A stretch of 64,000 bases of DNA from Telluribacter humicola (GCA_040394475.1 JBEBSD010000030.1:33-64032); one strand, 5' to 3'; shown: positions 1 to 58,935, counted from the first letter of the stretch. Numbers and translations: made by a program. Notes: generated by a model from the letters alone, not told the origin.

Positions 1-20
1 TTCGAATCCAAACGGGATCA
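1..20 (+). tRNA. Probable 3' end of a tRNA gene cut by the window edge
   Basis: Window opens with TTCGAAT (canonical T-loop), then CCAAA (5-nt T-stem strand starting CC), CGGGATC (7-nt acceptor strand) and discriminator A. No encoded CCA. Too little is visible to assign an isotype. Confidence 0.4.
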
Positions 21-30
21 CTTGAAAATC

Positions 31-61
31 AGGCACTTAGCAGCAATGTTGAGTGCTTTTT
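31..61 (+). terminator. Possible intrinsic terminator after the tRNA fragment
   Basis: AGGCACT (31-37) pairs with AGTGCTT (52-58, one G-U), 14-nt loop, T-run follows. The loop is long, so this is only moderate. Confidence 0.3.
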
Positions 62-94
62 GCTTCTTTCACAGTACTGAATTACGGGGTCAGC

Positions 95-250
95 CCACCG
101 TGGTCTGTGTCTTCACAGACCATGGTGGATTCCAGCATAAAACGGCTCAAGCGTAAAACTTGTGGAGTACGTTGTATTTTTCCGGCTTCCACCGTGGTCG
201 GTGTCTTCACAGACCATTCGCGACTAAAGCGTAACGCCTGTGGCCCGCGC
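95..250. repeat. Family A hairpin repeat, two tandem copies
   Basis: CCACCGTGGTCTGTG-TCTT-CACAGACCATGGTGG at 95-128 (15-bp arms, one mismatch). A diverged second copy lies at 189-220. The flanks AAGCGTAA..TGTGG are also duplicated. Confidence 0.85.
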
Positions 251-257
251 TGACCCG

Positions 258-305
258 GCAAAAAAGTAACACGGAGGGCACAGAGGTAAAACACAGAGGA
301 AGTCA
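258..305 (-). repeat. Family E element (reverse orientation)
   Basis: Reverse complement reads CCTCTGTGTTTTACCTCTGTGCCCTCCGTGTTACTTTTTTGCC. This matches the core of the 113-bp tandem units at 53387-53722. Confidence 0.75.
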
Positions 306-345
306 CTGAGAAAAATGACTTGAGATTTGGGATCCAGTACAGAGG

Positions 346-564
346 GTGATAAAATTCACGGGTCATGCTCTTGATCAAATGCAATCAAGGGGTAGTATTT
401 CTCCGAGCCTAGTCCTTGATATAATTAAGAATCCTGCAAGAGCGTTGCCTGGGAACACTCCGGGTACATCAGTTTTCATTAGAGACAATATAAAAGTTGT
501 TACAAACAAGGCAGGTGATAACATGACTGTTTTTTCCTATTGGCAAAACGAATTTATACAATGA
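346..564 (+). CDS. Orphan toxin C-terminal fragment, DUF4258-like (putative RNase-type toxin)
   Basis: 72 aa with only a GTG start; the frame opens at 319 with no ATG. The motif F-T-G-H-A-L-D-Q-M-Q-S-R-G-I-S resembles the DUF4258 signature H-A-x-x-R-M-x-x-R-G-I. The stop overlaps the next gene's start as ATGA (561-564). Confidence 0.45.
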   Translation: MIKFTGHALDQMQSRGSISPSLVLDIIKNPARALPGNTPGTSVFIRDNIKVVTNKAGDNMTVFSYWQNEFIQ

Positions 565-983
565 GACTTAAAGGTGATATAGGTAAACTGGAAATAGAAA
601 TCTTGAAGAGAAGCAACTCTGAAACGGAAGATTATTGGGACGCTAATTGGCTTGAATCAGAGATTAGAATAGATGTTCCGGGTTTTAGTGCCTTTTATGG
701 AACGAATCTGAGAGTTGATGACCTAAAAAGCTTTTATGAGAGGCTTACTGCTTTGCAGAACAGTAGTAGAAAAGAAGCAGAATTTGCTACATTGGAAGAA
801 GGCTTATATTTGTACTGTGAATTGGCCCCCAATGGCAGTGTAAATTGTAAAGGAAGCACAAATAATGGTACCGGAAACAGTTTGAACTTTAACCTTCAGA
901 CAGATTTAGCATCCTTAGGTGTTTTTGTAGACGAACTTAGAAAGATTTTAACATCTTATCTATTAATAGGGAATTTAGAATAA
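561..983 (+). CDS. Putative immunity protein, WapI-family-like
   Basis: ATG at 561 overlaps the upstream stop. There is no signal peptide. The segment LEIEILK...DYWDANWLESEIRIDV resembles my recollection of WapI-type immunity proteins (D-A-N-W-L block). Confidence 0.5.
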   Translation: MRLKGDIGKLEIEILKRSNSETEDYWDANWLESEIRIDVPGFSAFYGTNLRVDDLKSFYERLTALQNSSRKEAEFATLEEGLYLYCELAPNGSVNCKGSTNNGTGNSLNFNLQTDLASLGVFVDELRKILTSYLLIGNLE

Positions 984-1141
984 ATAAAAATTGAAGTTAA
1001 TGCTTATCAGGTACAATATTCTTATGATGACTTCTATCCAGCCGGCGCAAATTCCTTAAAGGATATAAATGAACAAACATTAATGAATATTAAAACTTCA
1101 AATGGTAGATCTGTTTATGGAAATTTAAAAGATATAAAGAA

Positions 1142-1852
1142 ATGATAAGCATGTTATTGACGTTAATAGCAGCAATTAATTTAATTTGCTGCATGCCTAC
1201 GAAAGGTCAAAAAGCTAAAGAAATATCAGGTATATATGAACAACAGGAAAGTTCGGAGAAATTGGAGTTAAAACCTGATGGGGCCTATACATTAATTAAT
1301 GCTGAAGTTTTATTTACTCCGGTCATAGAACAATGCGAATACGCATCCAAAGGGAAGTGGTCTCTAATGGCCGATAATGTGCTTTGTATTACAAGTGAAA
1401 ATTACTATTTAGAGGAAAAAGGATATGAGTATGAAATGGAAAAACAGCATAAATTTTCTTCAGATAGTTTGTATATACGAGTAGTATTTCCTACCGATTT
1501 TCATCCTGTTAAATTGAATTTTTCATTTAATCATAACAATAGCAAATCAATAACAACAGATAGTACTTATATCGTACTCGCTAAATCAAATTATTTATGG
1601 AATAGAAGAGCCGGGACTAACCATATTAGTTTTGACATGAATGCTTATGTGTCGGGAACTACACTTTATAAAAGTAGAATAATGTTTGAGATTTTTAATG
1701 AGTATGTAGACACTGAAAAGTACAATTTTCTTACCATTTATTTACCGAATTTTGATAGATGTTTTTTTGAATTCGAACCATATAATCAAGAGTTCATATA
1801 TATTAAAGGTAATAATCAGTTACTATGGAAAGGGGAAGTATGGCATAAATAG
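1142..1852 (+). CDS. Lipoprotein of unknown function, candidate periplasmic immunity protein
   Basis: 236 aa. The N-terminus MISMLLTLIAAINLICC has a lipobox-like L-I-C-C. A+T-rich. The start overlaps (ATGA, 1142-1145) the stop of a start-less 53-codon frame at 984-1145. Confidence 0.45.
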   Translation: MISMLLTLIAAINLICCMPTKGQKAKEISGIYEQQESSEKLELKPDGAYTLINAEVLFTPVIEQCEYASKGKWSLMADNVLCITSENYYLEEKGYEYEMEKQHKFSSDSLYIRVVFPTDFHPVKLNFSFNHNNSKSITTDSTYIVLAKSNYLWNRRAGTNHISFDMNAYVSGTTLYKSRIMFEIFNEYVDTEKYNFLTIYLPNFDRCFFEFEPYNQEFIYIKGNNQLLWKGEVWHK

Positions 1853-1924
1853 TTAATCGGATAGCCAAGCTAAGAGTGCAAATGTATTTTTATTGCTCGG
1901 GTCCTTTTTGGAAGGTGGGGAGTC

Positions 1925-2683
1925 GTGGATCCGATGGCGGAGATTTATGAAGACATAACCCCCTATAATTATGTCTTTTCTAATCCAATCCTTTGGACAG
2001 ATCCAGATGGGAGATGTCCAACTTGCCCGCAGGGAGATGAAGCTGCATCTACTTATAAGCCCGGAGCGATTGTAACCAATCAATACGGCTCTTGGACTTG
2101 GACGGGTTCAGAATGGCAGGATAATTTACCATCATCAGTGCCTGCCGGTTCTCAGGTTATGACGCCTGTTTCAGGCGCTTTGGGCTGGTTGGATCAGTTT
2201 TGGAGTGGAAACCGTAGTTATGTAGATGGTAGGCAGGTTAGTAGTTCAGGTGAGCTATTGAACACTTACACATCTAGAACGGGAACCCCGCCAGATTTGG
2301 GTATTGGAAAAGTTGGGTCTACTATTAAAATAGGGATTAGTCTAAAAAAACTTTTAGGGACTTATAGTTGGTCAAGCAGTCGAATAGCTCAAGCAGCCAA
2401 ACAACTCAATAGTGGTAGTAAAACAGTAAAAGTGGCAACTCGGGCGGAAGCGGAAGAGCTTTTCTTGGGTTTATTTCAAGGAAAAGGTTTTCGTAATACA
2501 ACTGGAATGTCAGCAAAAGAAGCCAAAGATTTTTTTGGAAAGGCCGGTACTTACCATTGGGATGATGTAACTGACGCTGCTGGTAGATTAGTAAATCATT
2601 CTGCATCCAATTCGCATGGAGCAATGAAACATTTGCAAATTCACGATGAAAGTGGTAAAATAATTAGAATCTTTTTTGAGTAG
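1925..2683 (+). CDS. Orphan RHS-core tip fused to an unclassified C-terminal toxin domain
   Basis: The frame is open from 1874 (..ARVLFGRWGVVDPMAE..) with no ATG before the homology. It contains SPYNY-type TPYNYVFSNPILWTDPDG, the RHS/YD core terminal motif. The variable C-terminus carries GTYHWDD and HLQIH motifs. Confidence 0.7.
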   Translation: MDPMAEIYEDITPYNYVFSNPILWTDPDGRCPTCPQGDEAASTYKPGAIVTNQYGSWTWTGSEWQDNLPSSVPAGSQVMTPVSGALGWLDQFWSGNRSYVDGRQVSSSGELLNTYTSRTGTPPDLGIGKVGSTIKIGISLKKLLGTYSWSSSRIAQAAKQLNSGSKTVKVATRAEAEELFLGLFQGKGFRNTTGMSAKEAKDFFGKAGTYHWDDVTDAAGRLVNHSASNSHGAMKHLQIHDESGKIIRIFFE

Positions 2684-2691
2684 TGATAATA

Positions 2692-3036
2692 ATGGAAGAT
2701 TTTAACAAAAGCGTGTGGAATAGGCTGTATTACCAAGGGGAGTATATTGCTGCCGAGTTACCATCCTCACAAGAAAATTATAGACGTTGGGTTGCCATTT
2801 ATAAAAGCAAGCCTGAGCATCCACTGTCACCTTGGGAGGAATCAGTATACAAATATTCTGTGCTAGATTTTGAACTTGACAGTAACTTAGTAGATGAGTA
2901 CTTTTCTGAGGAAGATAAACTAAATCAAAGAATATTTTATGCCGACTCCGAGGTTACTTTGTTGGATATTCTACATAAACAAAACATAGCACCTTCTTTA
3001 TTTACCTATCCATGGAAGTGTGATTATCCTTTATAA
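2692..3036 (+). CDS. Putative cytoplasmic immunity protein for the preceding toxin
   Basis: 114 aa from the ATG at 2692 (track ORF 2683-3036). It lies immediately downstream of the toxin stop (2681-2683), has no signal peptide, and is followed by a strong terminator. Confidence 0.5.
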   Translation: MEDFNKSVWNRLYYQGEYIAAELPSSQENYRRWVAIYKSKPEHPLSPWEESVYKYSVLDFELDSNLVDEYFSEEDKLNQRIFYADSEVTLLDILHKQNIAPSLFTYPWKCDYPL

Positions 3037-3040
3037 AACA

Positions 3041-3065
3041 AATCCCCGGCACGCCGGGGATTTTG
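3041..3065 (+). terminator. Intrinsic terminator
   Basis: AATCCCCGG-CACG-CCGGGGATT followed by TTTTGC, starting 5 nt after the stop at 3034-3036. Confidence 0.75.
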
Positions 3066-3151
3066 CTTCGCACTTTATAGAGTTCTCTAACGACGTCAGC
3101 GGCTCTAGTGTAACCGGGAATGAGGGATCTGCCGACCCTAAAAGTTCTGTG

Positions 3152-3448
3152 ATGACTATTAAGTTCAGCGACGTTTCGAAAACACTCGGTAGTGGGGAAA
3201 AGGCCAACCTGGAAAGCACTATGGCTCATGAGTTATCTCATCAATATGATAGGGAAACTGGAAAAAGAAACAGGAACGTACCAATTAATGATAAACATAC
3301 GGAGAGAGACCCTAATGAAATTAGAGCCGTTAATGTTGAAAACAGATATCGTGTCAATAATAATATGGAAATGAGAACAAATTATAGCGGAAGAATATAC
3401 CCAAATAGTTTTAAAAAACCAAAGCGGAGAAAAGATGAAGACGGCTAA
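3152..3448 (+). CDS. Putative HExxH metallopeptidase-type toxin fragment
   Basis: The track ORF is 3020-3448, but its first codons lie across the terminator hairpin; the first in-frame ATG is at 3152. It has MAHELSHQYD (HExxH, 3227-3241) and a downstream DPNEIRAVNVENRYR block. No RHS tip is present. Confidence 0.4.
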   Translation: MTIKFSDVSKTLGSGEKANLESTMAHELSHQYDRETGKRNRNVPINDKHTERDPNEIRAVNVENRYRVNNNMEMRTNYSGRIYPNSFKKPKRRKDEDG

Positions 3449-3929
3449 ATACTTATATATTCTCTTCCTAATATTCATGAATAGTTGCGATAGAAAAAAA
3501 GAATGCGTAACGAGCGAGTCTTTTAACCCTAGGTCACCAGCGTATATAAGTTTAGAGACTTCTCAAGGGAAAAAATATTGTATTGGTTACAACGAACTTT
3601 TAAAAGTTACACCTTCTGATGTCATGAATGGTCAACTCGGAATGAAAAAAAGAATAGATATTTATTGTGGCAGTATCAAGCTAGACAGCTCAGATATAAC
3701 CAAGATACTGAATGATATAAATGGTGTCGTGTACGAGATATCAGCCATTCCAGATAGTATAAATTTGAAACTAATGACTGAAATAGCATTGGATTCAAGC
3801 GGTATATTTAAGATTAGGGATTTTGATTATAACTTACGAGGCAACATAATTGATGCAGCCATTGGGAAAGGTTATATTGTTTATTTTGATGACCACGAAG
3901 GGGAATATTTTTGGGAAAGAAAAAATTAA
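3435..3929 (+). CDS. Lipoprotein, candidate periplasmic immunity protein
   Basis: 164 aa. The signal peptide MKTAKYLYILFLIFMNSC has a lipobox Cys. It overlaps the upstream ORF's end by 14 nt. Confidence 0.45.
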   Translation: MKTAKYLYILFLIFMNSCDRKKECVTSESFNPRSPAYISLETSQGKKYCIGYNELLKVTPSDVMNGQLGMKKRIDIYCGSIKLDSSDITKILNDINGVVYEISAIPDSINLKLMTEIALDSSGIFKIRDFDYNLRGNIIDAAIGKGYIVYFDDHEGEYFWERKN

Positions 3930-3997
3930 AATAGTGGCATCATAAGCAAAATTACTATCCTTTCGGGCTCAGTATCCCCAGGAGTGGGACGGATGCG

Positions 3998-4735
3998 GTG
4001 AATAGGTACCAGTTCCTGAATAGGGAAAAGCAGCCCGAGACAGGGTACATGGATCTGATGCTGCGTTTTTACGATCCGAGTATCGGGAGGTTTATGCAGG
4101 TCGATCCGGTGACGGAGACGCAAGAGAATTATTCCACCTACCAATATGGATGGAATAACCCGATCTTACAGAGTGATCCGAATGGAGATTGTCCCTCATG
4201 TCCGCAAGGCGAGGAAGCTGAAAAAGTTTATGCAGTTGGGGCGCAGGTGACCAATAAAGATGGATCTTGGACTTGGACTGGTAAAGAATGGCAGACCAAT
4301 ACGGTTAACGGCGAAGCACAAAATGCCAGTACGGTGGCATTGCCCTTAACTCTGTCACTACCATTAGCTGGATTAGGGGAAAAGGTGACAGAGATTTCCT
4401 TGAACGGATTGAAAGCCATTGCCACTGTGCCATTAATGACGCTGGCATTTGTACTCACACCAACCACGGCAAATGCGCCCGCACCAGTATTTGGCGACAA
4501 CCGTACGTATTATACACCACCTCCTCAAACTCTCCCTGGATTTCCCGGCGCAAAGAAGGTACCAAGAAGAGGCAGGGCTCGTTGGGTAACCCCTGATGGC
4601 GATATCTTGGAATGGGACTCTCAACACGGCGAAGTTGAAGTTTATAACAAGCGTGGAAAACATAAAGGAGTAGCTGATCCCAATACCGGGGAGATGCTAA
4701 AAGATCCCGTTCCTGGTAGGACAACCGAAAATTAA
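3998..4735 (+). CDS. Orphan RHS-core tip fused to a colicin E3-like cytotoxic rRNase domain
   Basis: The frame is open from 3935 (..NYYPFGLSIPG..NRYQFLNREKQPETGYMDLMLRFYDPSIGRFMQVDP..YQYGWNNPILQSDPNG), a typical RHS repeat-associated core end. The C-terminus RARWVTPDGDILEWDSQHGEVEVYNKRGKHKGVADPNTGEMLKDPVPGR aligns with the colicin E3 segment KRKRWTGDKGRKIYEWDSQHGELEGY..GSFDPKTGNQLKGPDP. Confidence 0.8.
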   Translation: MNRYQFLNREKQPETGYMDLMLRFYDPSIGRFMQVDPVTETQENYSTYQYGWNNPILQSDPNGDCPSCPQGEEAEKVYAVGAQVTNKDGSWTWTGKEWQTNTVNGEAQNASTVALPLTLSLPLAGLGEKVTEISLNGLKAIATVPLMTLAFVLTPTTANAPAPVFGDNRTYYTPPPQTLPGFPGAKKVPRRGRARWVTPDGDILEWDSQHGEVEVYNKRGKHKGVADPNTGEMLKDPVPGRTTEN

Positions 4736-4756
4736 TGATTCTAAGAAAGAGAAGAC

Positions 4757-5005
4757 ATGGAGATAACAAGACTAATTAGTGTATACGATAAGCAGACGCA
4801 AGAATTATTGAAGGAATACAATATTGATTTCATCAAATTTGATACTTTGAAGAAAATGTTTAATCCTCCAGACGATGATCCGTTAATGTATAATTTTTAT
4901 TGGGTTGAAGAATCCCAGCTTGAAGAGATGAAGCAATTAGTTGATGTCAATTTTGACTTAACTAAGTACATATACCAATTGGAATGCTTCCAGGCAAACA
5001 CTTAA
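4757..5005 (+). CDS. Putative immunity protein for the E3-like RNase
   Basis: 82 aa, acidic, no signal peptide, 21 nt downstream of the toxin stop and followed by a terminator. It is not similar to the ImmE3 sequence as I recall it. Confidence 0.5.
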   Translation: MEITRLISVYDKQTQELLKEYNIDFIKFDTLKKMFNPPDDDPLMYNFYWVEESQLEEMKQLVDVNFDLTKYIYQLECFQANT

Positions 5006-5025
5006 AAATGATTGCTTTAAACATA

Positions 5026-5053
5026 AAAAGCCCCATTCCACCCGGGCTTTTTA
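5026..5053 (+). terminator. Intrinsic terminator closing the toxin island
   Basis: AAAAGCCC (5026-5033) pairs with GGGCTTTT (5044-5051), 10-nt loop, T-run. Confidence 0.6.
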
Positions 5054-5249
5054 TGTTTACGAGGTTAACGCCTGCTTCCCCTTATGATCTGTCAGCGGCG
5101 AGGAAGTGTCAAAAACAAGAGAACTTATCGCCTCCTCTTATACTGAGCGTTCGTGCGGGCACATGATAATGAATGAGATTGCGTCAAAATACATGAGAGT
5201 GCTGCTGCGACCGATAATGACAGTCCCGTAGTCTGGTTCACCACATTTA

Positions 5250-5918
5250 TCATTTCAACAGCTCCACTATTTCTTTAAAGCCGCGGGACTGTGCATGCTG
5301 CAGGGGAGTTACGCCGTTGTGGTCGGGAATCGCTAACCGGGCTCCGGCGTCTTTCAAAATCTGTACGATCTGCTGGTATTTTTTGCTGCCGTCACCCAAA
5401 ACAATGGCTTCCATTAAAGCCGTCCAACCCAAGCGGTTGACATGGTCTATCGGATAATTTGGGGTCGTTGCCAGTAACCTGACGGTTTCTACATGTCCGC
5501 GTTCGCAAGCCGGTATCAGCGCCGATCCGTTGTACCGGTTAAAAATATCAAAACGCGCCCCGTTGTTCAGAAACAGTTGTACCAGTTCCGTTTGTCCGCT
5601 CGCACCGGCATATAGAAAAGGGCTATCCTGGTTGTCGGCTTGCAGATTGACATCTGCTCCGTGCTTTACCAGTAATTTTGCCATATCGGTTTGCCGGTTG
5701 TTGACCGCAATCAATAATAAGGAGCGTTTACGGTTATCTGTAGTATTGACATCCGCTCCGTTTCCCAGCGCCTTTGCGACTTCTTGTAGATTGTTTTTCC
5801 TGACTAAACTTAAAATGTCATGATCTTTCATTACTTCAGTTTGCGTAGCTTCTCTTGTCCTTGCATGACAGGAGGTGGTTGATAAGATAAGTGTCAGTAA
5901 AAAAACGGCGGTTTTCAT
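5250..5918 (-). CDS. Ankyrin-repeat lipoprotein
   Basis: 222 aa. Signal/lipobox LILSTTSC. Repeated ankyrin signatures (G-A-D-V-N, LLxxGA, TPLxxA). Confidence 0.85.
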   Translation of the reverse strand: MKTAVFLLTLILSTTSCHARTREATQTEVMKDHDILSLVRKNNLQEVAKALGNGADVNTTDNRKRSLLLIAVNNRQTDMAKLLVKHGADVNLQADNQDSPFLYAGASGQTELVQLFLNNGARFDIFNRYNGSALIPACERGHVETVRLLATTPNYPIDHVNRLGWTALMEAIVLGDGSKKYQQIVQILKDAGARLAIPDHNGVTPLQHAQSRGFKEIVELLK

Positions 5919-6062
5919 GGTCAGTCGATTTTAACGTACAATATCCCTCAGGCACATCAGTGATGTAACGGGAGCGAAACCGCCTCGGCAGCATTCCGGA
6001 TTCTGTAGCGTAACCGGCACATCCAACCTCCGTCAGTTGCCCCTCATGGAAAATCACCAGGG

Positions 6063-8477
6063 TTAGCGCAGCGATACCAGCGTTACGCCTGCTCCGCCGC
6101 GATCGGGATGTTCGTCGGTCAGGCCGGTTACCTGTTTATAGGAGCGCAGATGGTTCCGCACCAGACTCCTTAAGATGCCGTCGCCTTTGCCATGTACTAC
6201 CCGCAGCTCTTCGTAGCCCAGGATGAGTGCGTTGTTCAGGAACTGGTCCAGCGCTACCATGGCTTCTTCCCCGCGCTTGCCCCGGATGTCGAGGTTGAAG
6301 CTGAACTGCTGCATCTTCTCGTTCAGGTCGATGTTACTGCTGCCGGACAGCGAACGGGTCTTTTTGGTGGTGGTGGCGGTTTTGTAGATTTTTCCCGAAA
6401 CCCTTTCCAGGCGGTTCAGTTTGATGAACGATTTTAACGCTCCCATCCGGATCTCGGCTTCTTTCTCTTTCAGTGAAATGACTTCCCCGACGGTTGTCTG
6501 CCCCTTGATCCGGACATAGCTGCCAACGGCGATAGCGCCTTCTTCGGGCTCAAAAATTTCATCCTGCTCCGGGAGCGTTTCGACTACCTCCGGAACGAGC
6601 TCTTTTTGAACGAACGTTTCGAGTTGTGTCCGGACGGTTTTGGTAGCCGTTTTTTCCGCCTTTTGCTCCTTTATCTCCCGGATCGTATTTTCTATCAGCT
6701 GGTTGGCAGTGGCGACCAGTTCCCGAGCCTGCTGTTTTGCCTGGTTGCGAAGCCGTTTTTCGTTGTTTTCCAGTGTTGTTTTCAAGGCGGTGAACTCGGC
6801 GAGCTGTTGTGCCAGCTTACGCTCCTTAATACCGATTTCCAGGTTTTTTTCGGCAAAGACCCTGCGTTCGATATCGAGTTCTTTCAGGAGCTTTTCAAAA
6901 TTAACCTGTTGTACGCCCAGTTTTTGCTGCGCCCGCCCGATAACGCCTTTTGGCAAGCCTATTTTAGACGCAATTTCAAAGGCAAATGAGCTGCCGGGTT
7001 TACCGGTTTCGAGCGTATACAGGGGCTCCAGGTGCTCGCCGTCGAAACGCATGGCGCCGTTGACCAGCCCTTCTGTTTTATCGGCAAACAGCTTCAGGTT
7101 GGTGTAGTGGGTGTTGATGACCCCGAAGGCTCCGGAAGTTGCAAGGTCTTCCAGGATGGCTTCCGCAATAGCGCCGCCCAGGGCCGGTTCTGTGCCGGTA
7201 CCGAATTCATCAATTAAAAAGAGCGTCTGTTTGTCGGAATGCGCCAGCAGCTGCCGCATGTTGGTCAGATGGGAGCTATAGGTGCTCAGATCGTTTTCCA
7301 GCGATTGCTCGTCCCCGATATCGATAAAAATATGACGGAAGAGCCCGATCGTTGACCCCTCTTCCAGCGGGACCAGCAAACCGCACTGGTACATAAACTG
7401 AATGAGGCCCACTGTTTTGAGGGCCACGGACTTTCCGCCGGCGTTGGGTCCGGAGATAAGCAGGATCCGCTGCCGGGAGTTCAGCGCGATCTCCAACGGC
7501 ACGACCTGCTTCCCCAGTTTTTGAAAAGCAAGCAAGAGGATCGGGTGCCGGGCGTTTCGCCAGTCGAGGAGCGGGCGGTTTTCAAAATGAGGGTTGACCG
7601 CATTCATTTGCATGGCGAGCCGCGCTTTGGCCCGGAGGAAGTCCATCAGGCCCAGGTACTGACAGGCTTTGTGCAGTTCCGGCAAGTGCGGGCGAAGGGT
7701 GTCGGTCAGGGCGATGAGAATGCGGTTAATCTCCCGGCGCTCTTCGTATTCCAGTTCCCTGATGGCATTATTGGCCTCAAACACTTCTGTAGGTTCGATG
7801 AAAACCGTTTGTCCGGTAGCAGACTCGTCGTGTATAAAGCCCTTCAGCCGGCGTTTGTATTCTGCGGCTACCGGGATGACCATGCGTCCGTTCCGTACGG
7901 TCAGCGAGACGTCGTCGCCTACCCAGCCGCTGGATTTGGCGGTACGAAGCATGGTGTCCAGTTTTTTACGGACATTCGACTGTTCGGCGATAAGCTTTCT
8001 CCGGATCGTGACCAGCTCCGGAGAGGCATTGTCGCGTACCTTTCCCCGGTCGTCGATCACCCGTTCAATGGCATCGGTTACAGAGCGGTCCACTACGATC
8101 AGCGCCGCATATTCCTGCAAAAGGGGAAAGGCCTCCGGTTCCTGCGCGCTGAAAAAACGGAGGCATAGCCGTACCGTATTCAGGGAAGCTTTGATGTCGA
8201 AAAAGGCTTCTTCTGTCAACAGTATCCCCTCGATCCTTGCGCTTTCAAGAGACGTGGTAATATCAATATAATTCTGGGAGGGAAAATCGGCTGACTGTTC
8301 CAGGATACGCTTCATTTCGGCGGTTTGCCTGACCAGTTTATCGACCAGTACATACCGGTCGGAGAAGCGTATTTTTTCCACAAACGCACGGCCCATCGGA
8401 CTGATACAGGCTTCTTTCAGCAATTCACGTATCCGGTCGAAACCTAATTTCTGTTCTAGATTCTGGGGGTAGAGCAT
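6063..8477 (-). CDS. mutS2: Endonuclease MutS2 (MutS domain V ATPase plus C-terminal Smr)
   Basis: 804 aa. Walker A GPNAGGKS, FLIDEFGTGTEP, C-terminal Smr block LDIRGKRGEEA...VVHGKGDGILR. Confidence 0.95.
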   Translation of the reverse strand: MLYPQNLEQKLGFDRIRELLKEACISPMGRAFVEKIRFSDRYVLVDKLVRQTAEMKRILEQSADFPSQNYIDITTSLESARIEGILLTEEAFFDIKASLNTVRLCLRFFSAQEPEAFPLLQEYAALIVVDRSVTDAIERVIDDRGKVRDNASPELVTIRRKLIAEQSNVRKKLDTMLRTAKSSGWVGDDVSLTVRNGRMVIPVAAEYKRRLKGFIHDESATGQTVFIEPTEVFEANNAIRELEYEERREINRILIALTDTLRPHLPELHKACQYLGLMDFLRAKARLAMQMNAVNPHFENRPLLDWRNARHPILLLAFQKLGKQVVPLEIALNSRQRILLISGPNAGGKSVALKTVGLIQFMYQCGLLVPLEEGSTIGLFRHIFIDIGDEQSLENDLSTYSSHLTNMRQLLAHSDKQTLFLIDEFGTGTEPALGGAIAEAILEDLATSGAFGVINTHYTNLKLFADKTEGLVNGAMRFDGEHLEPLYTLETGKPGSSFAFEIASKIGLPKGVIGRAQQKLGVQQVNFEKLLKELDIERRVFAEKNLEIGIKERKLAQQLAEFTALKTTLENNEKRLRNQAKQQARELVATANQLIENTIREIKEQKAEKTATKTVRTQLETFVQKELVPEVVETLPEQDEIFEPEEGAIAVGSYVRIKGQTTVGEVISLKEKEAEIRMGALKSFIKLNRLERVSGKIYKTATTTKKTRSLSGSSNIDLNEKMQQFSFNLDIRGKRGEEAMVALDQFLNNALILGYEELRVVHGKGDGILRSLVRNHLRSYKQVTGLTDEHPDRGGAGVTLVSLR

Positions 8478-8618
8478 TCCTGCGGACTAAAATGGATAAT
8501 TGACGATAACACCGGACCGGTACCGGGGTGCGTGTTATGCGTTGGTTGTACTAAAAAGCGGCTGCTCTCCGGTCGGGAAACATAACCGGGGACAAATTTA
8601 CGGAATAAGCGGCTCGGT

Positions 8619-9137
8619 TCAGAAAATTGTTTGAATTTCTGTTTTCAGCGTTTTCAGCGCGTGGGCGGTGGATTGCCGGTCCTGAGCCAGCACTTGCTGG
8701 AATATCTGGCGGGAAAGTTCGGTTGCAGTAGCTTCCCGGCCCACCTTTTCTGCCGATTGGTTGATGAGCGATACCACTTCCTGCATGGCATTGTTAACCG
8801 TTTCCCAGGCATCATGGCTGATGTAAAGCTGTTGCGCCAGGTTGTGGTTGTATTCGCTGCGGATTTCATGGAGCAGGAGCTGCTGGAATTCGGAAGCACC
8901 TTCTGCACTGCCGGAAAGCCTGATAATCAGGTTGTTGGGGGTGATGCGTTCCAGGAACAGGCACATCCGTTCATAGGCCTGCAGTCGTAAAGGGGTAATC
9001 AGTTCGGTGTTTTTTATCCGGATATCCCATTGTTGCTTTTCGAAATAACTCCGGGCAATTACCGTGATGGTGAGGTACATCCCGAAAGTTAAAACAGCGA
9101 CGGTAATTAGTACCGTCAGGAGTGAATTTAATTCCAT
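8619..9137 (-). CDS. Hypothetical membrane-anchored protein
   Basis: 172 aa, with a single N-terminal TM (LLTVLITVAVLTFGMYLTITVI). No recognisable catalytic motif. Confidence 0.55.
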   Translation of the reverse strand: MELNSLLTVLITVAVLTFGMYLTITVIARSYFEKQQWDIRIKNTELITPLRLQAYERMCLFLERITPNNLIIRLSGSAEGASEFQQLLLHEIRSEYNHNLAQQLYISHDAWETVNNAMQEVVSLINQSAEKVGREATATELSRQIFQQVLAQDRQSTAHALKTLKTEIQTIF

Positions 9138-9186
9138 TGTACGATGTTATACGCTACGAATATGCCTGTCTAAATAACCAATCGAT

Positions 9187-9483
9187 ATGCTGGAGGACCC
9201 GGTCACCATCACTCCCAGGGCACAACAGGAAATAACCGAAACCCTGTCTGCCAATAAAATACCCGATACCTATGGACTCCGTGTAGGGATAAAAGGCGGG
9301 GGATGCAGCGGAAGCTTCGTGCTGGGCTTTGATACGATCCAGGAACATGATAAAGTTTACCACATCGATAACATCAAAGTCGTTATCGACCAACGCCATT
9401 TCATGTACGTACTAGGTGTAGAAGTAGATTATTCCGAAGATGCGGGCGGGTACACGCTTCGTTCCGCTAGTCATCAATCGTAA
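9187..9483 (+). CDS. HesB/IscA-family A-type Fe-S carrier-like protein, apparently lacking the C-terminal CGCG motif
   Basis: GLRVGIKGGGCSGSFVLGFD matches the A-type carrier core. The ORF ends ..VDYSEDAGGYTLRSASHQS, without the usual GF.F.NPN...CGCGESF tail. Its last 17 nt overlap the convergent HNH gene. Confidence 0.65.
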   Translation: MLEDPVTITPRAQQEITETLSANKIPDTYGLRVGIKGGGCSGSFVLGFDTIQEHDKVYHIDNIKVVIDQRHFMYVLGVEVDYSEDAGGYTLRSASHQS

Positions 9484-10036
9484 CATGCTTCCAGTTTTCC
9501 CCTGACCGGATCCGGTTAAGCTGCGTATGGGTGATCCCGAATTGCTTGGCAATCATCCGTAGCCTGTTCTTGTCATTTTTAAGGAGCTTCTTGATCATCC
9601 GCACCTTCGATTCCGTCAGCTTGTAATTACTGGTACGTTTCGGAGTTGCCCGGTTGAGCACAGCCGGGTTGGTACGGTTATGGGCAGTCATTTCTTCCTT
9701 CGTCACCCACTTGAGGTTTTCGAAATGATTGTTTTGTTTTTCGTAATCCAGGTGGATGACAAACTTGTGGTCCAGGCTTTTACGGGGCACAAAGTTGTCG
9801 GCAACCAGCTTGTGAATGTAGTGGTTGATGGTTTTACCACCTCCGGCACGGATGTTCAGGGAACGATAGCCCTGTATGACCGAACCTTTGATGAGCGCTC
9901 CGTTTTTGGGATCATTCTGAAAACTTTTCAGTCTCCCAAAATTGGATACCTCGTAATGCGGGGGATTTTCTACATTGTCAAAATGTATTTTTACCCACTC
10001 TTCGTTCCAGTAATTTTTGTTTTTCGGGTCATTCAT
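9467..10036 (-). CDS. NUMOD4 / HNH_3 homing-endonuclease-like protein with C-terminal HTH
   Basis: 189 aa. WVKIHFDNVENPPHYEVSNFGRLKS is NUMOD4-like. VIHLDYEKQNNHFENLKWVT is HNH_3-like. The C-terminal LTESKVRMIKKLL..IAKQFGITHTQLNRIRSGENW is HTH-like. The 5' flank (10037-10149) is A+T-rich. Confidence 0.75.
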   Translation of the reverse strand: MNDPKNKNYWNEEWVKIHFDNVENPPHYEVSNFGRLKSFQNDPKNGALIKGSVIQGYRSLNIRAGGGKTINHYIHKLVADNFVPRKSLDHKFVIHLDYEKQNNHFENLKWVTKEEMTAHNRTNPAVLNRATPKRTSNYKLTESKVRMIKKLLKNDKNRLRMIAKQFGITHTQLNRIRSGENWKHVTIDD

Positions 10037-10149
10037 AGCTATTTACCTCTGAGTGTGATTCAATGTTTACACTTTAACTAATTAGCCAAGTCAACTAAAT
10101 GATACAGTAAAGACAATGTTATTTTGGATAATTCAATACTAATACGTTT

Positions 10150-10974
10150 TTACACCGGTTTTTGTTGTTGCCGGGATCGCCAAATAAACCAGATTCCCAG
10201 AAGTATCGCCGGTATACTCAGTGTCTGACCCATATTTAATGCCAGACCTTCTTCGAAATCCACTTGATTTTCTTTGAAAAATTCAATTATAAACCGGAAA
10301 GTAAATACCCATATCATGAAAATTCCTACCAACATTCCGGATGGGGTCTGTGCTTTGTACTTGTTCCACAGCCAAACCAGCAGGAAAAACAACACCAGGT
10401 AGGCAGCTGCTTCGTACAACTGCGTCGGATGCCGCGGATATTTCGAAAATTCATGATTTTGCATAAAGATAAATCCCCAGGGCTTTTCAGTGATTTTCCC
10501 GAAGATTTCCGAGTTCATCAGGTTTCCCAAACGTATAAATACTCCAGCCAACGCAACCGTTATGGCTATACGGTCAGCAACCCATAAAAAGGTTTGTCCT
10601 GTTTTGCTGCGGGTACGGGAATACAGCCATAACCCCGTCAGAATGCCAATTATTGCTCCGTGACTGGCCAACCCGGCATAAGGCGGCAGAATGACCTCCA
10701 ACGGATTTTTAATCAGTACTTCGGGTTCGTAAAACAGAAAATGCCCGAACCTTGCACCCAGTACCGTCGCAAACACCATGTACAGGGTAAGGCTGTCGAT
10801 GTCGGCCAGCGGTTTGTGCTCCTTTTTGAAAATATGGATCATGAGCTGCTGGCCGATGACAAATGCCAACGCAAATAACAGCCCGTACCAACGGATCGGA
10901 AACGGTCCGAGACCCGCAAATTCCGGGATCGTAAAAATCTCCTTTGAGACATTCCAGGTAATAAATGAAAGCAT
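10150..10974 (-). CDS. lgt: Prolipoprotein diacylglyceryl transferase
   Basis: 274 aa polytopic membrane protein with IRWYGLLFALAF, GARFGHFLFY and RHPTQLYEA motifs. Confidence 0.9.
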   Translation of the reverse strand: MLSFITWNVSKEIFTIPEFAGLGPFPIRWYGLLFALAFVIGQQLMIHIFKKEHKPLADIDSLTLYMVFATVLGARFGHFLFYEPEVLIKNPLEVILPPYAGLASHGAIIGILTGLWLYSRTRSKTGQTFLWVADRIAITVALAGVFIRLGNLMNSEIFGKITEKPWGFIFMQNHEFSKYPRHPTQLYEAAAYLVLFFLLVWLWNKYKAQTPSGMLVGIFMIWVFTFRFIIEFFKENQVDFEEGLALNMGQTLSIPAILLGIWFIWRSRQQQKPV

Positions 10975-30404: not shown

Positions 30405-30675
30405 ACGCGTGGACTGTGCCCGTGGACTGTGTCTTCACCCGTGGACTGTGTCTTCACCCGTGGACTGTGTCTTCACAGTCCACTCCATCACCGGGATAGA
30501 CCGCCCGTTTCCGGGTTGGACCGCAAAATGGTCTGTGGGACACAGACCATGGACGGACTCACCGTGGACTGTGTCTTCACCCGTGGACTGTGTCTTCACA
30601 GTCCACTCCATCACCGGGATAGACCACCCGTTTCCGGGTTGGATCGCAAAATGGTCTGTGGGACACAGACCATGG
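30405..30675. repeat. Family A composite repeat, two tandem copies
   Basis: Each copy has iterated CGTGGACTGTGTCTTCAC, the palindrome GTGGACTGTG-TCTT-CACAGTCCAC, a spacer CCATCACCGGGATAGACC..CCGGGTTGGA, and the palindrome AAAATGGTCTGTG-GGA-CACAGACCATGG. Copies lie at about 30408-30552 and 30563-30674. Confidence 0.95.
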
Positions 30676-30676
30676 A

Positions 30677-53386: not shown

Positions 53387-53722
53387 GGGATTGCCTGACC
53401 ACGACGGCCCGAGCGTCTCCATTCAATTTTTTCCGTGCCGCCTCCGTGTTTTTCCTCTGCGCCCTCCGTGTTCCTTTTTCGCTGTATCAGCGCAAGAAAG
53501 GGATTGCCTGACCACGACGGCCCGAGCATCTCCATTCAATTTTTTCCGTGCCGCCTCCGTGTTTTTCCTCTGTGCCCTCCGTGTTCCTTTTTCGCTGTAT
53601 CAGCGCAAGAAAGGGATTGCCTGACCACGACGGCCCGAGCATCTCCATTCAATTTTCTCCGTGCCGCCTCCGTGTTTTTCCTCTGGGCCCTCCGTGTTCC
53701 GTTTTTCACTGTATCAGCAGAA
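53387..53722. repeat. Family E tandem repeat, 113-bp unit, 3 copies
   Basis: Units start at 53387, 53500 and 53613: GGGATTGCCTGACCACGACGGCCCGAGC.TCTCCATTCAATTTT.TCCGTGCCGCCTCCGTGTTTTTCCTCTG.GCCCTCCGTGTTCC.TTTTC.CTGTATCAGC... Confidence 0.95.
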
Positions 53723-58737: not shown

Positions 58738-58935
58738 TCCATGGTCTGTGTCCCACAGACCATTTTGGATACCGGCCAGTAAACAGTGGCCTGTGAAGAC
58801 ACAGTCCACGGTACGGCCCGTAAACAGTGGCCTGTAAAGACAAAGTCCACGGTACGGCCCGTGTCTCCAACCACCGACCTCCGTTTGGCTGACAGCCGAC
58901 TTCTGATAGCTGACTTCCGATAGCCGATAGCCGAT
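58738..58935 (-). repeat. Family A composite (reverse orientation) followed by family B (reverse)
   Basis: CCATGGTCTGTGTCCCACAGACCATTTTGG, then two copies of AACAGTGGCCTGTRAAGACAMAGTCCACGGTACGGCCCG, then GCCGACTTCTGATAGCTGACTTCCGATAGCCGATAGCCGAT. Confidence 0.9.

Follow-up and report, generated by a model that had tools for sequence, protein, structure and literature searches.

At STM0292 of Salmonella Typhimurium LT2 (Koskiniemi et al. 2014, PMC3967940), orphan rhs genes have lost their 5' part but retain some of the conserved core; past the DPxG motif each carries a variable toxin, its cognate immunity gene follows directly, an obvious start and export part are missing, and base composition breaks at the core/tip junction. 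Heterogeneous polyimmunity loci, tandem runs of at least four immunity genes from unrelated families on a single strand, occur in Bacteroidetes and have been proposed to pre-empt the toxins of non-kin (Zhang et al. 2012, PMC3482391). Steele et al. (2017, PMC5727410) described long orphan toxin/immunity strings in the Rhs arrays of the bee-gut bacteria Snodgrassella and Gilliamella and, in the accessible part of their report, interpret them as arising from recombination and toxin turnover.

We analyzed a 64,000-nucleotide stretch of Telluribacter humicola DNA, hereafter the window, from a Cytophagales-like (Bacteroidota) genome. Five toxin/immunity cassettes (c1 to c5), all on the same strand, occupy approximately 5 kb (319-5059). 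A preliminary description had proposed five orphan cassettes, and every ORF or open frame that it listed was present. Judged from sequence, all five toxin pieces are polymorphic-toxin C-termini. The features are as follows.

1-21, + strand: 3' end of tRNA-Arg(TCT) (T-loop, T-stem, acceptor strand and discriminator), cut by the window start
31-58, + strand: terminator-like hairpin and T-run directly 3' of the tRNA
319-564, + strand: c1 toxin, bare DUF4258/Ntox49-type C-terminal domain (homology 349-564; GTG at 346)
561-983, + strand: c1 immunity gene, WapI-like, intact, overlapping the c1 toxin stop by 4 nt
984-1145, + strand: c2 toxin remnant, start-less 3' end (53 codons) of an RHS-tip HExxH toxin
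1142-1852, + strand: c2 immunity gene, 236-aa probable lipoprotein of an unnamed family, overlapping the remnant by 4 nt
1874-2683, + strand: c3 tip (core end ~1904-2014, Cys-rich linker ~2003-2119, toxin domain ~2354-2680)
2692-3036, + strand: c3 immunity gene, 114-aa cytoplasmic protein of no family
3020-3448, + strand: c4 toxin, 5'-truncated, HExxH metallopeptidase-type (homology 3065-3433)
3040-3063, no strand assigned: GC-rich palindromic hairpin, terminator-like, between c3 and c4
3435-3929, + strand: c4 immunity gene, 164-aa probable lipoprotein of no family
3935-4735, + strand: c5 tip (core end 3953-4189, Cys-rich linker to ~4294, toxin domain ~4517-4726)
4757-5005, + strand: c5 immunity gene, DUF7683 protein
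5018-5059, + strand: perfect 16-bp hairpin followed by a T-run, a terminator closing the array

The array shares the truncation, the tip and partner order, the missing start and export part, and the composition break of the Salmonella orphans (PMC3967940). Unlike them, it adjoins a tRNA-Arg gene with no main rhs adjacent, it has lost the core wholly in three of the five cassettes, and its parent family is the Bacteroidota DUF6443-RHS family, whereas enterobacterial Rhs proteins are linked to PAAR/VgrG. The bee-gut arrays likewise differ, being T6SS/VgrG-linked and found in Proteobacteria as far as the accessible part of the source goes (PMC5727410). As in polyimmunity loci (PMC3482391), there are five intact tandem immunity genes on one strand from five unrelated families (WapI, a lipoprotein, the 114-aa protein, a second lipoprotein and DUF7683), exceeding the four such genes that define these loci. 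Polyimmunity loci hold immunity genes without toxin genes; here, in contrast, toxin fragments are interleaved and the toxin domains of c3 and c5 are complete, and the array region examined has no adjacent XerC/D-type recombinase.

Like AID clusters, the array keeps immunity genes without a matching deployable toxin. These orphan-immunity clusters of gut Bacteroidales, attributed to Ross et al. in 2019, reportedly keep immunity genes in the absence of a deployable toxin and guard against the effectors of neighbours. They are said to lie on mobile elements and to target T6SS effectors, and rAID clusters reportedly come with a tyrosine recombinase and repeats. In the array, by contrast, no mobile element, T6SS link or recombinase-repeat feature was found, and its cassettes come from RHS tips.

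The ends of the locus bear on whether the array is detached. ARAGORN called no tRNA gene over the window; nevertheless, positions 1-21 are the exact 3' end of an ARAGORN-called tRNA-Arg(tct) in 71 of the 80 metagenome loci carrying that 21-mer, and the fragment is thus the tail of a tRNA gene whose remainder lies outside the window. This agrees with the upstream neighbour proposed earlier. A tRNA-linked integrative genomic island was considered and rejected, as positions 1-5250 contain no integrase-like ORF and the 21-mer occurs once, with no second copy (direct repeat) in the window at up to three mismatches. The other detached arrays among the fetched loci are not tRNA-linked. The hairpin and T-run at 31-58 would make read-through from upstream into the array unlikely, the approximately 260 nt between this hairpin and c1 consist of dispersed intergenic repeats that are ordinary for this genome, and promoter-pattern scans of the array gave matches at chance level.

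No RHS body was found in the 64-kb window: a tblastn search with five full-length Cytophagales RHS proteins matched only the tips of c3 and c5, and the ORF survey found no RHS-like ORF of at least 150 aa, which bears out the earlier statement that the stretch shows no full-length rhs gene. An ordinary linked array, in the canonical position downstream of a full-length rhs gene lying just past the window or contig end, appears very unlikely. The source contig measures 66,043 nt, leaving at most approximately 2 kb outside the window; full-length relatives (DUF6443, RHS repeats, core and toxin) need at least 3.2 kb, so such a gene cannot fit the remaining contig. Assemblies are prone to break in rhs genes, and the closest relative (L003, 68% identity) does have a linked arrangement, its E3 cassette following an RHS body at a distance of approximately 3 kb; against this, the tRNA-Arg on the same strand, the hairpin and the repeats all intervene before c1. 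Several arrays in the fetched Bacteroidota loci consist of two to eight orphan tips, with no full-length RHS gene in the 10 kb upstream of them, and similar orphan arrays are common in these loci with or without such a gene within that distance. The detachment proposed earlier is not unusual among these loci.

Core sequence is kept in c3 and c5 only. The core and linker segments have a GC content of 47-49%, near the window average of 49.7%, whereas the cargo has 27-41%, making the array a mosaic in base composition. The c5 tip matches the Rhs_assc_core profile TIGR03696 at 59.8 bits (profile 1-75 of 76). Upstream of this match the frame stays open for just 85 codons, and the c5 core end, ending in DPxG without an RHS body, is that of an orphan rhs-CT/rhsI gene. 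The c3 tip matches only profile positions 43-75 of 76, and its 26 bits fall short of the 32.5 cutoff, so the expectation that the tips would match RHS-core profiles held in full for c5 and in part for c3. No core end is present in c1, c2 or c4; their homologues elsewhere do carry one. The toxin domains of c1, c3 and c5 are found on full-length polymorphic toxins in other genomes, and the adjacency of toxin and partner recurs in other genomes for c2, c3, c4 and c5.

The E3-like RNase tip described earlier in c5 matches PF09000 Cytotoxic (72.1 bits, cutoff 22, profile 2-79 of 80), which predicts a complete rRNase domain of the colicin E3/pyocin S6 type; this kind of domain also occurs on a 1080-aa RHS protein of D. 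bucti. The partner of c5 matches DUF7683 (PF24731) at 79.6 bits (profile 2-73 of 73), and in 11 other loci a DUF7683 gene directly follows an E3-type tip. The c3 toxin domain (approximately 105 aa) is complete and gave a confident structure model; it had no match in Pfam, PDB or BFVD. In its 35 homologues, from Bacteroidota and Firmicutes, the domain is joined to an RHS core end or to PT-HINT, and a full-length homologue with 68% identity occurs in Dyadobacter bucti (L019), where a homologue of the c3 immunity protein (57% over 53 aa) is encoded downstream of the toxin. The c3 immunity protein had no match in Pfam or NCBIfam, and, like the c3 toxin domain and the c2 and c4 immunity proteins, it has no named family, in line with the earlier remark on several unnamed toxin and immunity domains.

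The remaining toxin pieces are shorter. The start-less c2 remnant, in frame directly 3' of the c1 immunity stop, proved to be the C-terminus of an RHS-tip HExxH toxin: it is 76% identical (E 1.6e-19) to the C-terminal 42 aa of L083:5126-6004, a 292-aa ORF with an RHS core end and a HIHEIRH motif, and it also matches L084 and L085. The c2 pairing recurs in these three loci, and in L083 and L084 the lipoprotein gene directly follows its cognate toxin gene, overlapping it by 4 nt as here. This lipoprotein, which had no Pfam match, has 183 homologues across Bacteroidota (54-71% identity among the 120 listed, at 100% coverage) and a family consensus with an L-x-G-C lipobox. The c4 toxin has neither an RHS core nor approximately 70 N-terminal residues of its toxin domain. 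The HExxH assignment is upheld by 63% identity over 123 residues to residues 159-281 of a 286-aa RHS tip of Dyadobacter jejuensis (L015:13371-14228), whereas the profile matches to HExxH peptidases are weak (Tox-MPTase2, E 0.02; Peptidase_M76). The c4 lipoprotein had no Pfam match and is 35% identical over 162 aa (162 of 164 covered) to the product of the gene directly 3' of the c4-type toxin in L015.

Nothing is kept 5' of the toxin domain in c1. Its match to Pfam DUF4258 scores 20.9 bits over profile 1-64 of 71, short of the cutoff of 25, but its context is strong, as homologues place the domain at polymorphic-toxin C-termini. In 188 representative proteins of up to 3373 aa it lies at the very C-terminus, the long ones, CdiA-type and RHS proteins included, carrying DUF637 with PT-VENN or Laminin_G_3 with DUF6443 and RHS_repeat. 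DUF4258 corresponds to Ntox49, a colicin-like BECR RNase (bioRxiv 10.64898/2026.08.28.747851). The c1 partner matches WapI PF24716 as described earlier (80.7 bits, E 1.5e-22, cutoff 27, profile 5-137 of 138) and has no sequence relative in PDB. The DUF4258-WapI pairing was seen in none of the fetched loci; adjacency, the 4-nt overlap and the family annotations suggest that the two form a pair.

Self-translation of c1, c3 and c5 as addiction or abortive-infection modules acting in the producer, with the partners as antitoxins, is an extremely doubtful reading. It assumes a 72-aa c1 product from GTG 346, a c3 start at GTG 1925 or ATG 1934 and a c5 start at ATG 4049 (GTG 3998 being another possible c5 start). 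The source annotation does list c5 (228 aa, P0001) and c3 (249 aa) as proteins, stand-alone c1 homologues of 54-76 aa also exist, and DUF4258 proteins are frequently annotated as type II toxin-antitoxin toxins in the accessible part of the literature. However, the order of toxin first and immunity second, the RHS core remnants and the post-core linker are the layout of polymorphic toxins, the toxins of c2 and c4 are truncated, and the two lipoproteins would be unable to serve as cytoplasmic antitoxins.

The core ends and the linker bear on recombination. Past the core, c3, c5 and tips in other genera have a Cys-rich linker in common (CPxCPQG...GSWTWTGxEW), and c3 and c5 are 56% identical over 73 aa of core and linker (71% over 121 nt). 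A 95% identical core end in P0086 leads into Ntox10 and Imm27, and the same core end carries other cargo elsewhere, including an HNH toxin in P0034, with P0008, P0015 and P0040 also diverging past the core. The preliminary description had suggested a detached reservoir of toxin tips. In an active reservoir, gene conversion or homologous recombination would swap tips stored apart onto a main rhs gene and so change the deployed toxin. The complete core end of c5, the block common to c3 and c5, and the finding that near-identical core ends precede no fewer than five different toxins in other samples favor such an active reservoir, and recombination between a main rhs gene and an orphan has been demonstrated in Salmonella (PMC3967940). 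Two independent Logan contigs of this organism end within the c5 core, sharing the 19 nt at 3997-4015, a weak hint of a second core copy in the sample. Nevertheless, the reservoir finds poor support, with core in two of five toxin pieces only, c2 a stub, c4 short of its 70 residues and c1 a bare domain. Recombination in Salmonella used 522 bp of 95% identity and a linked orphan in the same orientation (PMC3967940), whereas c5 keeps approximately 255 nt of core and c3 approximately 110 nt, and at most approximately 255-360 nt would be available here. An unlinked partner would produce deletions or inversions unless gene conversion found downstream homology, of which none is evident. We therefore consider an active reservoir possible though unlikely. 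It is quite unlikely that free-standing Cytophagales arrays of this sort serve as 'trans' reservoirs, with core end and linker as a portable recombination handle by which an unlinked DUF6443-RHS gene could copy in new toxins, the c3 domain among them with an undescribed fold and activity.

The locus is probably a decaying orphan rhs-CT/rhsI array, composed of former tips of DUF6443-RHS toxins with their cognate immunity genes and kept chiefly for immunity. Truncation from the 5' side is graded, from c5 (core 1-75) and c3 (core 43-75) through the coreless c4 to the 53 aa of c2 and the lone domain of c1, and all five immunity genes are full length. Intact immunity genes beside mostly truncated toxin pieces point to retention of immunity while the toxins decay; the complete toxin domains of c3 and c5 speak against a pure immunity locus. 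Lipoprotein signals accompany the HExxH toxins of c2 and c4, and no signal peptide accompanies the RNase-type toxins, so the location of the immunity proteins fits the toxin type. The two lipoproteins may counter envelope-acting HExxH peptidase toxins, and the three cytoplasmic proteins may counter RNase-type or unknown cytoplasmic toxins. The array would stay in place by shielding its cell from the corresponding toxins that Bacteroidota nearby produce. Of the five toxin pieces, only that of c5, and marginally that of c3, might regain a full-length rhs gene if homologous recombination took place in the shared core end and linker, and c1, c2 and c4 would be toxin fossils.

The array belongs to a known kind of locus and adds little to the concepts of orphan Rhs genes and polyimmunity. 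What is new is modest, namely the c3 toxin domain, three unnamed immunity families and the Cys-rich post-core linker. The practical value lies in the unnamed parts: the c3 toxin domain, the widespread c2 lipoprotein family paired with an HExxH toxin, and two more immunity proteins. The Cys-rich segment, right past the RHS cleavage motif, might be an entry or processing module. The locus offers a clean example from an environmental Bacteroidota, with toxins at every stage of decay next to immunity genes kept whole, and this combination supports defence as the reason for which such arrays persist.

The preliminary description had reported five toxin-piece/partner pairs, and all five were confirmed at the coordinates it gave: they account for every sizeable plus-strand frame from the start of the window to a convergent ankyrin-repeat gene. 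These cassettes (c1-c5) and their borders comprise the following features.

Features of the cassette array and its borders (window coordinates)
1-21, plus strand: 3' end of tRNA-Arg(TCT), TTCGAATCCAAACGGGATCAC, with T-loop, T-stem and acceptor 3' end
31-58: terminator-like hairpin directly after the tRNA
319-564, plus strand: c1 toxin, DUF4258 at 20.9 bits, under the cutoff
561-983, plus strand: c1 immunity gene, WapI family, 80.7 bits
984-1145, plus strand: c2 toxin remnant, a 53-codon stub
1142-1852, plus strand: c2 immunity gene, a probable lipoprotein matching no Pfam model
1874-2683, plus strand: c3 tip with positions 43-75 of the 76-position RHS core, the last third of the profile (26 bits), a linker and a C-terminal domain
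2692-3036, plus strand: c3 immunity gene, a 114-aa partner
3020-3448, plus strand: c4 toxin, an HExxH piece
3040-3063: GC-rich hairpin splitting cassettes 1-3 from 4-5
3435-3929, plus strand: c4 immunity gene, a probable lipoprotein
3935-4735, plus strand: c5 tip with a full core end (59.8 bits), the linker in common with c3 and a colicin-E3-type domain (72.1 bits)
4757-5005, plus strand: c5 immunity gene, DUF7683, 79.6 bits
5018-5059, plus strand: array-closing hairpin, a perfect 16-bp stem followed by a T-run
5250-5918, minus strand: ankyrin-repeat gene, convergent to the array, with a lipoprotein-type signal

The array was tightly packed, with about 10-50 nt between the stop codon of one immunity gene and the start of the next toxin homology, and toxin and immunity genes overlapped at three junctions (561-564 and 1142-1145, 4 nt each; 3435-3448, 14 nt). 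Matches to sigma-70 promoter patterns were no more frequent than expected by chance, and TAnnTTTG was matched four times against about three by a rough composition-based estimate. The flank comprised housekeeping genes, namely MutS2, Lgt and SusC/D genes. The ankyrin-repeat gene had a host-like GC content of 47%; ankyrin repeats are among the listed immunity classes, as Imm-ank (Zhang 2012, PMC3482391).

We then analyzed the upstream edge, where the neighbor had been called tRNA-like. ARAGORN identified no tRNA gene in the window, and an Rfam search of positions 1-6500 returned nothing. The 21-mer at positions 1-21 was the exact 3' end of tRNA-Arg(TCT) in 71 of the 80 metagenome loci containing it, which places position 1 within a tRNA gene on the same strand. 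None of these loci carried the flanking ank or mutS2 genes or any cassette. The gap between tRNA and array is ordinary host intergenic DNA (95-326; GC 49%) filled with dispersed or tandem repeat copies (95-128, 189-217 and 247-326), further copies of which lie at 30419-30676, 53387-53718 and 58787-58812, the last within a repeat stretch at 58773-58862. One repeat family consists of the hairpin unit CCACCGTGGTCTGTGTCTTCACAGACCATGGTGG and a related 19-nt tandem unit, and another of a 113-nt tandem unit. We rejected a tRNA-linked integrative island, because the window held no att-like repeat of the tRNA end, positions 1-5250 held no integrase-like frame, and other arrays were not tRNA-linked.

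The toxin pieces were graded from complete (c5 and c3) through shortened (c4 and c1) to dead (c2), and all five immunity genes were full length. In c1, the bare toxin domain alone survives, with homology from nucleotide 349. An exhaustive search placed this 62-aa domain at the extreme C-terminus of 188 representative proteins of up to 3373 aa, the long ones being either CdiA-type (DUF637 and PT-VENN) or RHS-type (Laminin_G_3, DUF6443 and RHS_repeat). According to a 2026 preprint, DUF4258 corresponds to Ntox49 and belongs among the colicin-like BECR RNases (bioRxiv 10.64898/2026.08.28.747851). Neither the c1 toxin nor its WapI-like partner had sequence relatives in the PDB.

The c2 stub aligned with the C-terminal 42 residues of a reading frame of 292 aa in a Chitinophagales MAG, one of the related loci that we fetched (L083:5126-6004; 76% identity, E 1.6e-19). 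An RHS core end opens this frame, which also contains an HIHEIRH motif, and a c2-type lipoprotein gene follows it directly, also with a 4-nt overlap. The c2 lipoprotein family included 183 Bacteroidota homologues, with 54-71% identity among the 120 matches listed. Its AlphaFold model was poor (pLDDT 66.7, pTM 0.49), and the Foldseek matches were meaningless. A close homologue was also observed at 6001-6717 of a Sphingobacterium sp. CZ-2 locus (L085; CP038159.1, 1892406-1905122), in a string of small genes adjoining an rve-type transposase. The string includes a second gene, of 238 aa, that does not match the c2 lipoprotein, and the frames between the two genes contain stop codons and RHS core ends in a degraded state. 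The string is another decayed cassette array.

The c4 piece matched only residues 159-281 of a 286-aa Dyadobacter jejuensis RHS tip (63% identity), indicating that the core and about 70 toxin residues have been lost. A homologue of the c4 lipoprotein (35% identity) is kept downstream of that tip. The DUF7683 partner of c5 directly followed E3 tips in 11 other loci. Lipoproteins accompanied both HExxH toxins, whereas the partners of the RNase-type and unassigned toxins carried no signal peptide; these partner types would fit envelope-acting and cytoplasm-acting toxins, respectively.

The c3 toxin domain (2354-2680; about 105 aa) carried the motifs AEELFL, GTYHWD, HLQIH and IRIFF and was shared by RHS tips and PT-HINT toxins across Bacteroidota and Firmicutes. 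A Dyadobacter bucti tip 68% identical to c3 lies downstream of the gene for a 1036-aa RHS protein, and a homologue of the 114-aa partner comes after the tip. The AlphaFold model of the domain was confident (pLDDT 83.8, core above 90). Foldseek identified no similar structure in the PDB (best E 0.37, TM ≤ 0.33) or BFVD, PDB sequences were matched neither by single sequence nor by profile, and none of 35 members had a Pfam match.

The c3 and c5 tips were 56% identical over a 73-aa stretch that runs from the core end into a Cys-rich linker with the pattern DPxG-x-CPxCPQGxEA...GSWTWTGxEW (2003-2119 in c3 and 4178-4294 in c5). The linker matches no Pfam family; it occurs in tips of L003, Lacihabitans and D. 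bucti, with copies at L003:7023, L012:10229 and L019:10178, sitting right after the RHS core end and ahead of unrelated toxin domains in several Cytophagales. Such a segment may act in processing or cell entry, or may just provide a handle for recombination. The GC content of core and linker was host-like (47-49%), and that of most cargo was 27-41%. In other samples, Ntox10 with Imm27, an HNH toxin or other toxins followed core ends that matched the c5 core end with up to 95% identity. The presence of different toxins behind near-identical core ends indicates that the core/toxin junction is a real point of polymorphism.

No RHS body fragment was found anywhere in the 64-kb window, in agreement with the earlier observation that no full-length rhs gene was in view. 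The organism is Cytophagales-like: an uncultured Cytophagales MAG gave the best match (68% identity), and Dyadobacter, Lacihabitans, Emticicia and Runella came next. Relatives of full length have about 1080 aa and comprise DUF6443, RHS repeats, core and toxin; our literature search identified no paper naming DUF6443 together with RHS. In D. bucti (L007), the gene directly before the RHS gene (7604-10843), and overlapping it, encodes a protein of 1254 aa that carries a C-terminal T9SS sorting domain (3847-7608), which hints at a possible export route for Cytophagales RHS toxins. When we tallied the core ends across the fetched loci, covering 10 kb upstream of each, arrays lay behind full-length rhs genes in L007, L010, L011, L012, L013, L019, L022, L024 and L035, and an RHS body lay upstream of the E3 cassette in L003. 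Arrays of 2-8 orphan tips had no full-length rhs gene within 10 kb upstream (L004, L015, L017, L023, L044, L052, L062, L083 and L085), indicating that detached arrays are common; those in the fetched loci were not tRNA-linked in general.

The preliminary description thus stood as to the array itself and only partly as to its interpretation as a detached reservoir of toxin tips. It is possible that c5, and marginally c3, could re-join a full-length rhs gene and so act as an active reservoir. Two independent Logan contigs of the same organism from run SRR23622342, L001 (716-4015) and L002 (3997-16323), end and overlap by 19 nt (3997-4015) exactly within the c5 core; this is a weak hint at a second copy of the core in the sample, which would explain the break. 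However, the core and linker available here amount to at most about 255-360 nt, whereas the proven mechanism of rhs recombination in Salmonella relied on a main gene in linkage and on longer homology, 522 bp at 95% identity (PMC3967940). The array as a whole reads better as a decaying immunity locus. It is probably an orphan rhs-CT/rhsI array in decay that would be of lasting use through its immunity genes, a proposed function close to that of the Bacteroidetes polyimmunity loci (PMC3482391). This type of locus is already known, and the novelty is modest; the main interest lies in the parts without a family name, both the c3 toxin domain and immunity families, and in the linker conserved after the core.
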